From: an uncultured Bacteroidaceae bacterium
GTDB lineage: Bacteria > Bacillota > Clostridia > Christensenellales > CAG-917
DNA length: 64,000 nucleotides
Assembly: GCA_964563025.1 (NCBI GenBank)
Contig: CAZLVK010000001.1
Coordinates: 12,451-76,450, forward strand
Reading direction: 5' to 3'
Each line of letters begins with the position of its first letter. The stretch's first letter is position 1. Shown one piece after another: positions 7,039 through 39,677 of the stretch. Both the position numbers and the translations under genes were made by a program. The notes below the pieces were generated by a model that was not told the origin of the DNA, ran no database searches, and was given only the letters and a program-made list of their open reading frames with translations.

Positions 7039-7071
7039 GTCATTCCGAGAGTCATAATACTCGGACTGCAC
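7039..7071 (+). repeat. partial copy of the GTCATTCCGAG dispersed repeat, with local hairpin
   Basis: gtcattccgaga matches the 5' end of the repeat family seen at 7367, 7459 and 39559. TCCGAG-agtcataata-CTCGGA forms a hairpin. Confidence 0.5.
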
Positions 7072-7366
7072 TCTTTCGGAGACGGAACACGAGGCGCAAC
7101 GCGCCGAGCCGGCGAGTGTTGAGCGGAGCCGTTTAGCACAAGCGACTGCGTGCATTGGGTTCGCGTAGCGGCACGCACAAAGCGCAGTGACATAACGAGG
7201 AACGTCGCTTAGCGCGAAACCGAGTGTGTCCCCCTGCGCAAGCAGTCGACGTGGGTTCCCCGTAGAGGGGGAACGTCGATTGGGGAAACACGTGAGGAAG
7301 AGGGAAATTTAGATTAAGGTGCAAGCACTACCCTCTTTGTCGCTTTCAAGAAAGCGATGACGGTAC

Positions 7367-7402
7367 GCTTCCGCGAGATTCCCACGCTCCGCTCGGAATG
7401 AC
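7367..7402 (-). repeat. dispersed intergenic repeat (GTCATTCCGAGCGGAGCGTGGGAATCTCGCGGAAGC)
   Basis: The reverse complement of 7367..7402 is nearly identical to 39559..39594, with 2-3 mismatches over about 33 nt. It shares both ends with 7459..7505. Confidence 0.8.
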
Positions 7403-7410
7403 AATCGGGC

Positions 7411-7426
7411 GCGGGTGTCCCCGCCC
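7411..7426 (+). repeat. GCGGGTGTCCCCGCCC hairpin repeat, copy 1
   Basis: Exact 16-mer repeated at 7541..7556. GCGGG/CCCGC stem with a tetraloop. Confidence 0.8.
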
Positions 7427-7458
7427 TTATAACCACAGTCGGTTTTCCCATTCACTTT

Positions 7459-7505
7459 GTCATTCAGAGGAGTGCATTAGCACGACGTAGGAATCTCGCG
7501 GAAGC
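7459..7505 (+). repeat. dispersed intergenic repeat, variant copy
   Basis: gtcattcagagg...gtaggaatctcgcggaagc shares both termini with the family. It is in inverted orientation relative to copy 7367..7402. Confidence 0.65.
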
Positions 7506-7540
7506 AAACGGCACTGATATACGCACTATATCAATCGTGT

Positions 7541-7556
7541 GCGGGTGTCCCCGCCC
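7541..7556 (+). repeat. GCGGGTGTCCCCGCCC hairpin repeat, copy 2
   Basis: Exact duplicate of 7411..7426. Confidence 0.8.
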
Positions 7557-7963
7557 TAATTTAACCAAAACGGAAATTTTGCGGAACTACAAATTGAGTT
7601 TTGAGTCGGCAAGAGTTGTAGCAAAAAATTTTCGTTGCGGAGAAGTTGCGTTGCAAGTGCCGTCAGAACGATTTTCCTCCGGAAAATCGCCGACGGCTTC
7701 GCAGCATAAGCAACCGTGTTTCGCATATACACGCTTAATTTTTCATCGTCAAACGCAATATTCGTAAATTTTAGACAATTTTCGTATAATTATTCAAAAA
7801 CGTTGAATTTTTTAATAAATCTTTCACATTTCCGACAAAAATTGCATAAAATTAAATTTATGAAATTTTTCAAAACCCCCCAATTTTTTAATGTTGTTTT
7901 AATAATTGGCAAAAATAATGCGCTTGTAAGACAAGTTCTTACACATCTTTGTTTCAGCTTGCG

Positions 7964-8812: not shown

Positions 8813-8949
8813 GGAATCTCCTCATTGCAATTCGGCATTCTAATCGCCTTTAATTTTCGACAACATTATAACAAAAATATAGTTTTTGTCCAACCTTTTT
8901 TACGGTTTTTTTTGACAATATTTTTAATTAATGCAATTAGTTTACCGCT

Positions 8950-9636
8950 TTACGGATTTTCCTTTGTTTCATTCCCGCCGTTTTCCCGCATTTTCGCGAA
9001 ATAAACCGACGGACGCACGTTGTTCATCGTGACGATTTTGTCGAGTCCCCTGACTTCGATATATTTTTGTATCGTACTGCGGTGTACGCCGAGCCGTTTC
9101 GCGATGGCGGTATAGGTCTTTCCGCGCCTCAGCATACTGACGATTCTATCCTCTTTCCCGTCGAGTTTATAGCGTTTATTCTTGCTCCCATAAGGTCGTC
9201 CGAGAGTTTTGCCCTCGTCTTTCATACGAGCCAAAGCCTCTTTCGTGCGCTGGGATATGAAGTTTCTCTCGATCTCCGCGGACAGCCCGAAGGCAAAAGC
9301 AAGGACTTTCGATTGCAAGTCGTCGCCGAGCCTGTATCCGTCCCGAATCGTCCACACCCTACACCCTTTTTCGAGGCAAATGTTGAGGATTTCCATGACC
9401 ATAAACAGCGTCCTGCCGAACCGTGAAATCTCGGTAGCGACGAGGGTATCTCCCTCTTTGACGTTTTTAAGTAGCGCACCGAGCCGACGCTTGTCGATAC
9501 TCATAACGCCCGAGATAGTCTCCTCGAACCAAACGTCCACCTCGATGCCGTTATCCCTGCAAAATCTTTCGATTTCGTAACGCTGATTCTCAAGCGTCTG
9601 TTTCTCCGTACTCACGCGGATATAGCCGTAAACCAT
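8950..9636 (-). CDS. small serine recombinase (resolvase/invertase family)
   Basis: MVYGYIRVSTEKQ...ATEISRFGR is the catalytic-Ser N-terminal domain, and there is a C-terminal HTH (GKTYTAIAKRLGVHRSTIQKYI). The start was set at ATG 9636 behind GGAGG. Confidence 0.9.
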   Translation of the reverse strand: MVYGYIRVSTEKQTLENQRYEIERFCRDNGIEVDVWFEETISGVMSIDKRRLGALLKNVKEGDTLVATEISRFGRTLFMVMEILNICLEKGCRVWTIRDGYRLGDDLQSKVLAFAFGLSAEIERNFISQRTKEALARMKDEGKTLGRPYGSKNKRYKLDGKEDRIVSMLRRGKTYTAIAKRLGVHRSTIQKYIEVRGLDKIVTMNNVRPSVYFAKMRENGGNETKENP

Positions 9637-9810
9637 AGTTGTAACCTCCTGAGTTTTTTCACAACTATACCCGTCTCGGTCCCGAAAATCCAACAAAACG
9701 ACGATTGCAACAAAAATTTATTAAAAGCAGCCCTTTCTCTTTTAGGTTTGCATCTACGCCATATCGCAATTAGTTTTCAGAGGTCCGCGATGAAACCCTC
9801 GCACCGCACG

Positions 9811-9838
9811 AAAAAGCCCCATCCAAAGATAGGGCTTA
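9811..9838 (-). terminator. terminator downstream of the IMPase-family gene
   Basis: The minus strand reads AGCCC-tatctttggat-GGGGCTTTTT. Confidence 0.6.
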
Positions 9839-9872
9839 ATCACTAATTATTCCGTCCGTGTAGCACACGAAA

Positions 9873-10631
9873 CTATTTCACGATGACGGATTTCAGATAT
9901 TCGAGAGTTTTCGGAGTGCCGGCGATTATCGTGGTGGGCGTGTCGAACTGCAAGGGATTGCCTTTATAGTCGCAAAGCGCACCGCCCGCTTCTTCGAGGA
10001 TAAGGGACGCCGCCGCATAATCCCAAGGTTTCAAGCGTTTTTCAAAGTAGCCGTTTATTCTCCCCGCCGCGATATAGCAAATCGCAAGTGCGGACGAACA
10101 CATACGTCTTAAATCAAGGCAGTTTTTGAATATTTCTTTGCCGTAGGCAAACGCCTCGTCCGCCTCACCTTTGAGCGTCGAGCCCGCTCCGAACTCTATA
10201 AGGCTGTCGTGAGGTTCTCTATCCACGGCGTAGATGCGCTTGCCGTTGAGATACGCTCCCTCACCTCTGACGGCGGTGAAAACCTCGTCCATATAGGGAT
10301 TGTAGACCACGCCGTAAACGATTTTGCCGTCCTCGTACAAGCCGAGAGAGACAGAACTGAGCCTATAATCGAACACCAAATTCGTGGTGCCGTCAATAGG
10401 ATCGAGGATATATCTGCGATTTGCAAGTTCGCCTACGTCCTCTTCTTCGCTCATGAAGCCCGCTTGGGGATCGATTTCGAGCAACTTGCTCTTCACGTAA
10501 TTGCTCACTGCAAAATCGACCTTTGTGACGTAGTCCGCCTCTCCTTTCATGCTTATGCTGTTGCGCAACTCCTCGCTGAACACGATTGATTTTGCGCCGA
10601 TTATCATTTCGGTTATTTTATTATAATCCAT
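9873..10631 (-). CDS. inositol monophosphatase family phosphatase (SuhB/CysQ-like)
   Basis: Carries the ILDPIDGTTN and WDYAAASLILEEAGG motifs of the IMPase/FBPase superfamily. Confidence 0.9.
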   Translation of the reverse strand: MDYNKITEMIIGAKSIVFSEELRNSISMKGEADYVTKVDFAVSNYVKSKLLEIDPQAGFMSEEEDVGELANRRYILDPIDGTTNLVFDYRLSSVSLGLYEDGKIVYGVVYNPYMDEVFTAVRGEGAYLNGKRIYAVDREPHDSLIEFGAGSTLKGEADEAFAYGKEIFKNCLDLRRMCSSALAICYIAAGRINGYFEKRLKPWDYAAASLILEEAGGALCDYKGNPLQFDTPTTIIAGTPKTLEYLKSVIVK

Positions 10632-37994: not shown

Positions 37995-38030
37995 AAAATC
38001 CGATGAAATCCTCGTCGGATTTTATTTTAC
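37995..38030 (+). terminator. terminator of the MATE gene (left boundary hairpin of the islet)
   Basis: AAAATCCGATGA-aatcc-TCGTCGGATTTTATTTT. The stem is nearly identical to the hairpin at 39174..39210. Confidence 0.8.
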
Positions 38031-38109
38031 TATTTGCCTCATATTGCTTGTCATAAAAACTTGCTTTTTCGCTTTCCCATAGGTTAAATTCTTCGCAAGG
38101 AGGTCTAAT

Positions 38110-38688
38110 ATGAACTTATCAGACGCAAACAATTTAACGGAACAATTATTATCTGCAGAATGGGTAAAAATCATCCATCCCGGCACCGCGCCTGCAACCA
38201 CGGCGGAAACGAAAAGAATATATGCACAAGAAAACAATTCTTCTCATTGTTCAGTTTGTCTAAACTTAAACGGGTGCTGTTTTGTTATCAATATTTGTCC
38301 CGCTATTCCGCATCATCCGCATTGTCATTGCTATTTGAATAACGTACAGCGCATGACCGTTACGATAGAATGTCCGATAATTAAATTTACAAGGTATGCG
38401 TTTGTCCATCAAGAAGTCGGAGATAAAAAGCAACTTTTTGAAGCGTGGGGATTTGATATTAGCGACTCGGAATATTTGCAAAAAGAATTTTCAGAACAAG
38501 CATATATTGCTTATTCTACCGGAAATTATACTCTCGCAAATCTAAACAGTTACGCTCAAAAAATTAACATTGAAATTACTCTAAAACGAAAAGACAACAA
38601 CGAGTACATAACGTTCAAAACAGGTTGGACGGTTTACCCTGACGGGAAAATTTTGCTCGCAACGCCATACGCTAATCAAAAAAAATAA
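38110..38688 (+). CDS. MuF-type Cys/His motif fused to a DUF6883-like C-terminal domain (192 aa)
   Basis: Strong RBS AAGGAGG. HCSVCLNLNGCCFV...PHHPHCHCYL resembles the C..C..L.G...P.HP.C.C signature of SPP1 gp7/Mu F head-morphogenesis proteins. The C-terminus KFTRYAFVHQEVGDKKQLFEAWGFD...TGWTVYPDGKILLATPY follows the DUF6883 pattern as I remember it. The region is AT-rich. Confidence 0.55.
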   Translation: MNLSDANNLTEQLLSAEWVKIIHPGTAPATTAETKRIYAQENNSSHCSVCLNLNGCCFVINICPAIPHHPHCHCYLNNVQRMTVTIECPIIKFTRYAFVHQEVGDKKQLFEAWGFDISDSEYLQKEFSEQAYIAYSTGNYTLANLNSYAQKINIEITLKRKDNNEYITFKTGWTVYPDGKILLATPYANQKK

Positions 38689-38740
38689 ATTTACAAACTT
38701 TGCAAAACTGTATTATACTCATAATAAGGAGATTTGATTT

Positions 38741-39127
38741 ATGCAAGAATACGACATAGTTGAACTAATAGTCGAAAAAGAGTGTTACGCCAAAGAAGGG
38801 GCGCACAAAGGGGATATAGGCACCATTTTGGACCCGCGAAAAATCGAGGGCTCATGGTTTGTCGTTTTTCCAAAAGAGTTATATATAGACGATAACGAGC
38901 AATTGGCTCAAAATATTGCTGAAGCCGTAATCAAAGAAGAGGACTTGCGACTTGTAAAAGCGATGAACGTTGATTTATCAGAAGAATATTTTTGTTTCAC
39001 GCACAATCCGCAAATCATAGACAACGTCCCCGACGACCTCTATGAAGTGCTTGAAAGAAGAGGCGATCTCGACAAATGTTTCTCCCCTATTCCAAAGCCC
39101 AAAAAAGACGAAACAAAAAAGGATTAA
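38741..39127 (+). CDS. DUF4926-like protein (128 aa)
   Basis: RBS AAGGAG. The N-terminus MQEYDIVELIVE...HKGDIGTILD...FVVF...IKEEDLRLV follows the DUF4926 pattern. The C-terminal tail is basic. Confidence 0.55.
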   Translation: MQEYDIVELIVEKECYAKEGAHKGDIGTILDPRKIEGSWFVVFPKELYIDDNEQLAQNIAEAVIKEEDLRLVKAMNVDLSEEYFCFTHNPQIIDNVPDDLYEVLERRGDLDKCFSPIPKPKKDETKKD

Positions 39128-39173
39128 TTGTCGTCAAAAGTAATTTTCAAACAGACACAATCAAAGCATTAAA

Positions 39174-39210
39174 CAAAAAAAATCCGACGAGAGTATCGTC
39201 GGATTTTTAT
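39174..39210. terminator. bidirectional terminator (right boundary hairpin of the islet)
   Basis: AAAAAAAATCCGACGA-gagta-TCGTCGGATTTTTATT. Confidence 0.8.
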
Positions 39211-39407
39211 TCTATATCGAACAAATCTTCATACGCACAATCAAACGTTTCCTTAAGTTTTTTGATATGCGCCACATCGGGTTCGGTGTAGCCGTTTTCC
39301 CAGTGTCCTATCGTTTTGAAGGGCACTCCCAACTTCTCTGCCAAATCCTTTTGCGTCATCTCATTGACTTTTCTGAGTTCCTTGATATTATCGCCAATTG
39401 TTTTCAT
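39207..39407 (-). CDS. XRE-family HTH transcriptional regulator (66 aa)
   Basis: IKELRKVNEMTQKDLAEKLGVPFKTIGHWENGYTEPD is a canonical Cro/C1-type HTH. Confidence 0.9.
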   Translation of the reverse strand: MKTIGDNIKELRKVNEMTQKDLAEKLGVPFKTIGHWENGYTEPDVAHIKKLKETFDCAYEDLFDIE

Positions 39408-39418
39408 ATTTATATTAT

Positions 39419-39461
39419 CTCAACAATTGAGTATTTGCGCTTGGCGGTCTCAATATTTGAG
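39419..39461. promoter_or_regulatory. twin palindromic operators upstream of the XRE gene
   Basis: CTCAAcaaTTGAG (39419-39431) and CTCAAtatTTGAG (39449-39461). The centres are 30 bp apart, and the sites start 12 nt upstream of the XRE start codon. Confidence 0.6.
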
Positions 39462-39558
39462 CATTTACATCGGCGCGTCGCGCCTCGAGTTCCGTCTCCG
39501 AAAGAGTAATTGCGTATACTCACCCGCCCATAGTGCAGTTCGAACAAAAACAATCATA

Positions 39559-39594
39559 TCATTCCGAGCGTAGCGTGGGAATCTCCCGGAAGGG
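39559..39594 (+). repeat. dispersed intergenic repeat (TCATTCCGAGCGTAGCGTGGGAATCTCCCGGAAGG)
   Basis: Near-identical to the reverse complement of 7367..7402. Confidence 0.8.
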
Positions 39595-39644
39595 AAACGA
39601 CACATAAACACCACCATTATTTCACCAAACAATGTTTTATCCAC

Positions 39645-39677
39645 AAAAAATCCACCGATAAACGGTGGATTTTTTCA
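39645..39677. terminator. terminator downstream of gpmI (bidirectional)
   Basis: AAAAAATCCACCG-ataaa-CGGTGGATTTTTT. Confidence 0.8.

Follow-up and report, generated by a model that had tools for sequence, protein, structure and literature searches.

The MuF polymorphic toxins carried by temperate phages have been known since 2017 (Jamet et al., PMC5576092), and fusions of MuF with ribonucleases (RNases) of the BECR type were described in the same year (Iyer et al., PMC5512222). A 2026 bioRxiv preprint (10.64898/2026.08.28.747851) has reported DUF6883 fused to Phage_Mu_F and followed by DUF4926, and has assigned DUF6883, on computational grounds, to the colicin-like BECR fold, which is composed of a pre-alpha element, an alpha element and four strands. 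The present work deals with two adjacent genes, called gene 1 and gene 2, that lie in an islet between a MATE gene and gpmI in an uncultured gut Clostridia bacterium (assembly GCA_964563025.1, contig CAZLVK010000001.1, positions 12,451 to 76,450; this whole stretch of 64,000 nucleotides is the window, and coordinates refer to it unless another locus is named). The two genes probably constitute a cognate toxin-immunity pair that descends from the phage MuF polymorphic toxins and is now independent in the chromosome. The original prediction for this islet had taken the fusion of MuF to DUF6883 for an undescribed arrangement, which does not hold, since the preprint reports the trio and MuF-BECR fusions have been known since 2017. 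The association of MuF, DUF6883 and DUF4926 is therefore already known (10.64898/2026.08.28.747851), and the main interest of the locus is its variation between strains. The features of the pair are the following.

38110-38688, + strand: gene 1, 192 residues, predicted toxin
38245-38331: positions of H46, C47, C50, H69, C72, H73 and C74 of the mini-MuF zinc-knuckle domain (gene 1 residues 1-85)
38371-38685: DUF6883 / BECR-Tox3-like predicted RNase toxin domain (gene 1 residues 88-192)
38044-38103, + strand: promoter-like leader of gene 1, with TTGCTT at 38044-38049 and 38061-38066, TTAAAT at 38084-38089 and the ribosome-binding site AAGGAGG at 38097-38103
38741-39127, + strand: gene 2, 128 residues, predicted immunity protein
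38690-38719, + strand: promoter-like site inside the operon, TTTACA-N18-TATACT, with 10 of 12 consensus matches
38726-38731, + strand: ribosome-binding site AAGGAG of gene 2

Canonical MuF toxins contain 400-600 residues, and their genes are flanked in a prophage by those for the portal and the scaffold. In Streptococcus phage phiARI0462, for instance, the 'minor head protein' gene adjoins that of the portal. Gene 1 shares with the toxins described by Jamet et al. a MuF-type N-terminus followed by a variable C-terminal toxin domain, a small open reading frame of less than 150 residues immediately downstream (gene 2) and a Firmicutes host. However, its product is much shorter, lacks the N-terminal two-thirds of MuF and is encoded between MATE and gpmI, with no phage genes; portal and terminase neighbours, which mark the prophage modules, are absent here, and seven other contexts with homologues have no phage structural genes either. 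The small open reading frame downstream of the phiARI0462 MuF gene was considered as a homologue of gene 2 and is not one. With respect to the DUF6883/BECR-Tox3 plus DUF4926 system, the pair has the homologous C-terminal domain, the toxin-first order, the MuF-type N-terminus and the colicin-like order of structural elements, but its MuF part comprises only the last ~60 residues of that domain, its partner has an extra tail of 55 residues and the genes lie outside a prophage.

The connection with MuF is provided by P0269, a protein of 276 residues in which a Phage_Mu_F domain (residues 39-142, 50.5 bits, cut-off 29.6) is followed by DUF6883 (39.5 bits, cut-off 27), and which matches the minor head proteins of 169 phage records. 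The zinc motif of P0269, at residues 111-140, aligns column-for-column with C47-C74 of gene 1. Since P0269 bridges MuF and gene 1, residues 1-85 of the latter are a cut-down MuF domain; judged from the sequences, the Cys/His motif of gene 1 is homologous, transitively via P0269, to the C-terminal end of the MuF domain, so that the earlier attribution of this motif to MuF is upheld for that part. A head-morphogenesis family of PHROG matches the motif in gene 1, below threshold (E 0.0066), and in 17 of 30 of its relatives, and the only significant match of the gene 1 model in BFVD is a 'Minor capsid protein' of 473 residues (E 9.3e-5). When the family profile was aligned by hhalign with single MuF sequences (SPP1 gp7 and phiARI0462) the result was not significant; the phiARI0462 alignment fell on the correct motif. 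None of 29 close relatives matches Phage_Mu_F at E ≤ 0.01. Gene 1 retains only the putatively zinc-binding C-terminal part of the MuF head-protein domain, fused to the predicted RNase.

The gene 1 family comprises 38 full-length clusters of ~190 residues, and an exhaustive profile search with it retrieves 655 clusters at the 50% identity level; short forms with the motif C-x2-C...H-x2-C-[HD]-C account for at least 61 of the best 150. Residues W18, H23, H46, C47, C50, H69, C72, H73, C74, K92, Y96, Q130, Q150, W173 and T185 are invariant in the alignment of the close family. DUF6883 (PF21814) scores 20.8 bits on gene 1 (E 4.8e-4, residues 91-181, profile positions 13-100 of 110), and 29 of 30 close relatives match it, as do 36 of 40 distant ones; the best E is 1.3e-10, and some relatives exceed the Pfam threshold. 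The family profile A1 also retrieves, at E 1e-22 to 1e-25, proteins whose C-termini score 28-39.5 bits for DUF6883, over the cut-off. The same ~105 C-terminal residues end the RHS-repeat toxin P0302 and RHS-core fragments, with DUF6883 there above the Pfam cut-off, and for this reason the domain can be regarded as the tip of a polymorphic toxin.

The AlphaFold2 model of gene 1 has a mean predicted local distance difference test score (pLDDT) of 89 and a predicted template modelling score of 0.86; pLDDT is 86-96 over most of residues 91-180 and ~77 at 101-110. The C-terminal domain contains helices at residues 90-98, 107-112 and 117-137 (the long one) and strands at 141-145, 150-159, 166-175 and 180-185, an order of elements that agrees with the colicin-like BECR topology (10.64898/2026.08.28.747851). 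BECR RNases have a conserved C-terminal Thr or Ser (PMC5512222), and the invariant T185 fits this position. Gene 1 resembles the MuF-PBECR and colicin D/E5-type RNases in having a predicted BECR domain C-terminal to MuF, in T185 and in a long helix with a four-stranded sheet. Since DUF6883 has been reclassified as a colicin-like BECR fold, the domain is most likely a metal-independent RNase.

Gene 2 starts 52 nucleotides downstream of gene 1. Its residues 1-73 form a SH3-like, DUF4926-related barrel and residues 74-128 a clade-specific tail; in the model (pLDDT 87.7) there are five strands within residues 6-73 and the tail is short and helical. At least 599 proteins, with one-domain and two-domain forms, belong to the family defined by the first 73 residues, and 2 out of 72 of its members match DUF4926 at E ≤ 0.01. 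One gene-2-like domain, that of P0102, spans positions 1-56 of the 57 of the DUF4926 profile with 24.9 bits, under the cut-off of 29.1. 'DUF4926-like' would thus be a fair label, with family membership not established: the partner proposed in the original prediction stands as a SH3 barrel encoded 3' of a DUF6883 toxin, and does not stand as a recognised DUF4926 protein. Most likely, gene 2 would bind and block the toxin domain. The promoter-like site upstream of it is a putative internal promoter of the operon, and a similar site precedes the immunity gene at two related loci (L027 and L044; loci of other genomes are numbered L) in which the toxin is deleted. Gene 2 would probably have its own promoter, and immunity would then be made in excess. 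The leader of gene 1, also a putative promoter, is kept in the window, L005 and L006 though the surrounding spacers differ.

Several observations weigh against a MuF-derived toxin-immunity pair. The window proteins are under every Pfam gathering threshold for the three families named at the outset, in which they also depart from the described DUF6883/BECR-Tox3 system: the DUF6883 score of gene 1 is below the cut-off of 27, so that this domain holds for the family and only sub-threshold for the window protein; Phage_Mu_F (PF04233) does not match gene 1 even at E ≤ 1; and gene 2 has neither a match to DUF4926 (PF16277) at E ≤ 1 nor any Pfam match of its own. The gene 2 model matches generic SH3/KOW barrels only, the best PDB entries being L21e, L24 and KapB. 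With respect to the RNase, the full-length gene 1 model had no PDB match at E ≤ 0.001 in Foldseek, hence no solved BECR RNase, and profile searches of PDB sequences (A1, A2 and A4) gave chance-level matches only. The N-terminal helix of the domain contains the invariant K92 and Y96 and neither His nor Arg; the histidine usual in these enzymes is missing, and K92 stands at the invariant position, unlike in MuF-PBECR and colicin D/E5-type RNases. Because of the missing histidine and the lack of a Foldseek match, RNase activity is a prediction, and membership of the BECR superfamily draws on the assignment made in the preprint and on the topology of the model. The near-invariant G149 and R151 of the GQR motif of the family are A and K in the window protein; the motif (38473-38480, residues 149-151) reads A-Q-K here and S-Q-S and T-Q-T in the two closest relatives, Q150 alone being retained. 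The loss of the residues around Q150 may affect activity. No delivery apparatus is evident. Short-form relatives are absent from the phage, plasmid and viral-contig collections searched: tblastn with gene 1 gave no match in 50,697 phage records or 72,556 plasmids, tblastn with gene 2 gave none in the same phage records, and scans of IMG/VR with the A1 profile and with P0269 gave no confirmed relative. Moreover, the toxin-immunity family to which the pair would be added as a further member is defined by computation alone, from sequences and models.

Genes of these two kinds are also paired elsewhere. A gene-2-like gene directly follows the gene 1 homologue in all seven unrelated contexts examined outside the MATE/gpmI locus (L001, L033/34, L035, L036, L037, L038 and L039/40), and the same toxin-then-partner order is kept in the toxin-bearing relatives at this locus. 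The partner overlaps the stop codon of the gene 1 homologue in L036 and lies at most 4 nucleotides from it in the other six contexts; it has 73-80 residues where complete and is duplicated in two contexts. These contexts contain no phage structural genes and most are ordinary metabolic neighbourhoods. Partner identity is correlated with the identity of the toxin C-terminal domain (r = 0.83, Mantel p = 0.002, 8 loci), and more weakly with that of the N-terminal domain (r = 0.70). The toxins of L005 and L006 are 74% identical in the N-terminal domain and 46% in the C-terminal one, a contrast that looks like the mosaic expected of a polymorphic toxin. The toxin/immunity-like cassette that had been proposed is thus supported by genes that co-occur in every context examined and co-vary.

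This compact pairing would also be expected of a classical type II toxin-antitoxin (TA) module, in which the RNase is confined to the producing cell and held by a labile protein antitoxin, with no connection to phage particles or competition. Such a module is possible, if doubtful. Like TA systems with RNase toxins (RelE, HigB, HicA), the locus is a small operon of two coupled genes, at most 4 nucleotides apart or overlapping in the seven other contexts, with the toxin first as in higBA and hicAB. No signal peptide or secretion domain is detected in the gene 1 sequence, and its product is therefore predicted to be cytoplasmic. The pairs are scattered over unrelated chromosomal sites, some of them by integrase or defence genes (L001, L037 and L038), and BECR RNases include the RelE-type TA toxins (10.64898/2026.08.28.747851). 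However, the partner is a SH3-like barrel without a DNA-binding domain, the toxin domain also ends RHS polymorphic toxins, and the conserved mini-MuF domain, an extra phage-head domain, would have no role in a plain TA module. The polymorphism of the locus, described below, is likewise that of an immunity locus.

A scan with the MATE protein gave 28 loci from uncultured gut Clostridia. Empty sites were found in L007, L008, L010, L019-L026 and L029, where MATE and gpmI are convergent and separated by 110-350 bp and a single hairpin; these relatives are more distant (MATE 60-70% identical). Insertion had been proposed for the islet, and at least 12 related genomes with a single-hairpin MATE/gpmI site agree with it. 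The islet is confined to the closest clade, in which MATE identity is at least 84%, and its form varies from member to member.

L004/L005: toxin and two immunity genes, no XRE gene
L006: toxin with 50% identity to gene 1, immunity gene of its own, followed by a gene for a lipoprotein and an XRE gene other than that of the window
L027 and L044-L053: immunity gene, no toxin gene called (L044-L053 are contigs from ten samples of one study)

The two toxin-less alleles examined in detail, L027 and L044 (97.5% identical), have an internally deleted toxin and an intact immunity gene; what is left of the toxin in L027 (7680-7930) is its first ~10 codons and the out-of-frame C-terminal third. The second immunity gene of L005 (8646-9011), in tandem with the first, is 64% identical to gene 2 and 84% identical to the immunity gene of L006, and resembles an orphan immunity gene directed at the other type of toxin. 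An extra immunity gene for the toxin of another strain and a toxin-less allele fit protection against an incoming toxin better than a type II TA module, although orphan antitoxins occur in TA systems too. With its hyper-divergent alleles, the extra immunity gene for a foreign toxin and the C-terminal domain shared with P0302, the locus resembles RHS and other polymorphic-toxin loci with orphan immunity arrays; unlike them, it has no RHS shell, secretion system or known delivery domain at or near it.

The public gene call of L002 (7658-8327) splits the gene 1 orthologue into 69 and 108 residues (P0031). A frameshifted or pseudogene gene 1 in L002/L005 was accordingly considered and discarded as a gene-calling artefact, the frame of 192 residues being intact. 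The metagenome-assembled genome records of L005, L006, L007, L008 and L027 are titled 'uncultured Bacteroidaceae', while the syntenic loci of 20 other genomes bear the titles Clostridia, Christensenella or Firmicutes CAG:475; Bacteroidaceae is probably a mislabelling.

Between the window and L005, synonymous divergence (dS) is 0.74 for gene 1 and 0.72 for gene 2, compared with 0.65 and 0.75 for the flanks, and the ratio of nonsynonymous to synonymous divergence (dN/dS) is 0.14 for gene 1 and 0.19 for gene 2. Since the dS values equal those of the flanks and the dN/dS ratios are this low, the islet is old and under purifying selection. A recent insertion is ruled out by the same comparison with the nearest relative, and the description of the islet as a mobile cassette has to be given up as far as recent mobility is concerned. 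Alleles at the locus diverge far beyond their flanks. For instance, L006 and L027 have flanks with 94.5-95.8% nucleotide identity, while their immunity proteins are 69% identical and the toxin C-terminal domains 44%; dS is ~0.2 in the flanks and 0.92 in the immunity gene, which argues that alleles have been exchanged between strains. After entry of the pair, selection would have kept it, while alleles were swapped, extra immunity genes were gained and the toxin was deleted in one lineage.

These data bear on a view of the islet as a decaying scrap of a prophage head module, without present function and with an incidental likeness of its flanking hairpins. The islet is AT-rich relative to its flanks, as had been noticed (GC 0.33-0.39 over 38050-39400, ~0.50 on either side), the MuF domain is truncated and the toxin is internally deleted in one lineage, all of which counts in favour of this view. 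However, both genes have been under purifying selection over a dS of ~0.7, the architecture of 190 residues is kept across dozens of 50%-identity clusters and at unrelated loci, always with the partner, and no further phage genes are nearby, the neighbours of the islet being a Na/H exchanger gene, MATE, gpmI, tpiA and pgk. Hairpins with matching stems, unique in the window, also occur as pairs in three lineages. Decay is thus very improbable, and a toxin-immunity pair maintained by selection is the better account. The pattern of the locus suggests that the pair serves in conflicts, be it between strains or with phages, and is a poor fit to a housekeeping function or to simple decay.

Three hairpins delimit the islet and the adjoining XRE gene.

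37995-38023, no strand assigned: hairpin A, intrinsic terminator of the MATE gene and left edge of the islet, AAAATCCGATGA-AATCC-TCGTCGGATTTT
39178-39208, no strand assigned: hairpin B, bidirectional terminator common to the gene 1-gene 2 operon and the convergent XRE gene, AAAAATCCGACGA-GAGTA-TCGTCGGATTTTT
39645-39675: hairpin C, terminator of gpmI, of the same stem family as A and B, AAAAAATCCACCG-ATAAA-CGGTGGATTTTTT

Hairpin C had been overlooked in the original prediction. The near-identity of A and B and the difference between their loops, on the other hand, are confirmed: the stems, of 12-13 bp, differ at one base, and their pattern has these two matches only in the 64 kb and none in 100 shuffles. 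The folding energies are -14.6 kcal/mol for hairpin A (z-score -6.7) and -18.2 (+ strand) and -17.3 kcal/mol (- strand) for hairpin B; z is about -6.5 for both hairpins, and both have U-runs. The window contains ~10 further terminator-like hairpins, and every one of their stems is unrelated to A and B, so that a terminator sequence common throughout the genome, which would have made the likeness uninformative, is ruled out. The junction hairpins resemble ordinary terminators with an A-run, a GC stem and a T-run, and not integron attC sites; no integrase, which an integron-type array would require, was found at the locus in the window or in syntenic relatives, no tRNA gene that could serve as an integration site is present in the window, and Rfam detected no known RNA in the islet, with two sub-threshold matches to terminator-like sequences.

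The flanking hairpins match within each lineage and differ between lineages, a pattern that recurs in three lineages and extends what had been seen in the window.

Window: AAATCCGAYGA twice, and AAATCCACCG at gpmI
L005: AAATCCGACG and AAATCCACCG, with similar loops
L027 and L044: GCACTCC twice
L006: GCACTGC at both ends and ACACTCC in the middle
L022 (empty site): one GCACTCC

It was considered that matching hairpins travel with the cassette, and this is ruled out: at five other loci with the same gene pair the flanking terminators are mutually unrelated. The hairpin pattern therefore belongs to the MATE/gpmI locus and not to the cassette. The simplest reading is that the resident terminator was duplicated upon insertion; gene conversion between nearby hairpin copies is a possible alternative. 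The pair would have entered the bidirectional MATE/gpmI terminator in the common ancestor of a small group of gut Clostridia, leaving a copy of the terminator on each side.

The XRE gene that lies between hairpins B and C has the following features.

39207-39407, - strand: XRE-family helix-turn-helix gene, 66 residues
39419-39431 and 39449-39461: palindromes CTCAACAATTGAG and CTCAATATTTGAG, 12 and 42 bp upstream of the XRE start codon
39558-39675: junction unit at the gpmI end, with a copy of the dispersed GTCATTCCGAG repeat (39558-39600) and hairpin C (39645-39675)

The three open reading frames of the islet are present with the lengths first given (192, 128 and 66 residues), and so are the twin palindromes, one base off the positions implied for them. 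The XRE protein matches HTH_3 with 53.4 bits (cut-off 23, E 2.6e-14). The two CTCAA-N3-TTGAG palindromes are exact, of 13 bp and 30 bp apart, and no other site in the window matches, even with a tolerance of one mismatch; from their position they are probably auto-operators of the XRE gene. Transcription of this gene runs toward the pair, and hairpin B serves both. The XRE gene is missing in L005 and L027, and the XRE protein of L006 is 33% identical, with its gene in the opposite orientation. Regulation of the cassette by XRE was considered and ruled out, since no CTCAA-N3-TTGAG site occurs near the gene 1 promoter and XRE is not conserved with the pair. The inclusion of this gene in the cassette in the original prediction is therefore abandoned: it is gone or different in relatives, with operators at its own promoter only, and it is a separate and probably self-regulated module. 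The slot of the window XRE gene is occupied in L006 by a gene for a predicted lipoprotein of 209 residues with a signal peptide and Cys (9040-9665, - strand) and, beside it, an XRE gene of 68 residues (9765-9970, + strand).

The copy of the dispersed repeat after the islet, at 39558-39569, is present as reported, with one mismatch. The sequence just 5' of hairpin B (39146-39170) is 80% identical to that just 5' of the dispersed repeat (39539-39563); because of this resemblance, and because hairpin C shares the stem family of A and B, the XRE module itself is bracketed by related junction units. The repeated junction of L006 is longer, of ~75-85 nucleotides, and consists of the GTCATTCCGAG repeat and a hairpin, three times. 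These L006 units, at 7463-7535, 8935-9012 and 9980-10062 of a contig shared with L003, each contain a GTCATTCCGAGCRAAGCGYGGGAAT repeat followed ~25 nucleotides later by a terminator with a GCACTSC stem; no further copies are found in the 13-kb locus, and the units partition MATE, the toxin-immunity pair, the lipoprotein-plus-XRE module and gpmI. Every module at the locus is bounded by a copy of the resident terminator, whether the gene 1-gene 2 pair, the XRE gene or the lipoprotein-plus-XRE module of L006, where the copy adds the GTCATTCCGAG repeat. Elsewhere in the window, the region 7039-7700 consists of ~650 nucleotides after a terminator without any open reading frame of at least 80 residues; it contains three GTCATTCCGAG copies (7039 +, 7391 - and 7459 +) and a pair of near-identical GC-rich motifs, GGGCGCGGGTGTCCCCGCCC at 7408 and GTGTGCGGGTGTCCCCGCCC at 7538, and Rfam gave no significant match in it.

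A further reading takes the pair for an abortive-infection or anti-phage module, in which the mini-MuF domain would act as decoy or sensor: by binding the portal or the machinery of head assembly of an infecting phage, it would free the RNase from its immunity protein or load it into progeny capsids. The mini-MuF domain and the conserved core of a phage head protein, whose gene adjoins the portal gene, are homologous, the domain is strongly constrained (nine of the invariant residues of the close family, from W18 to C74, lie in it), and some homologues have defence-like neighbours. The pair of L037 (1887-3575) is beside an OLD-family ATPase-Toprim nuclease, and that of L001 (816-5237 and 10040-12576) is beside a DUF2357 protein, a Fic protein and a ResIII/Eco57I enzyme, with an integrase nearby. 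However, PADLOC defence models gave no match, most contexts are metabolic, and the binding of mini-MuF to a portal protein is purely conjectural; an anti-phage module is unlikely.

Two further and separate ideas, jointly of low probability, go beyond a toxin-immunity pair of MuF descent. The first is that chromosomal toxins made of mini-MuF and an RNase are loaded into phage capsids or sense them: a host-encoded toxin could ride in the particles of resident or infecting phages, or fire upon head assembly, and, if true, a capsid-riding toxin would explain why strains keep immunity against the toxins of other strains. The second is that the terminator-bounded modules could reflect a recombinase-independent insertion of cassettes that targets and duplicates terminators.

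Newly provided by this locus are empty sites, evidence for how old the insertion is and that it has been under selection, polymorphism between strains with orphan and toxin-less alleles, and recurring copies of the terminator at module boundaries. Practical value is modest today, and the window proteins, which escape the Pfam thresholds, are left unnamed in the genome annotations examined. The conserved MuF remnant of 85 residues raises the question of its own role, which could be the binding of zinc, of the portal protein or of RNA. Two toxin types, a genome with extra immunity, an immunity-only allele and many relatives with empty sites constitute a natural test set for specificity. If the prediction holds, the locus would represent a compact and tractable phage-derived RNase toxin that has turned into a strain-variable chromosomal locus in gut Clostridia.

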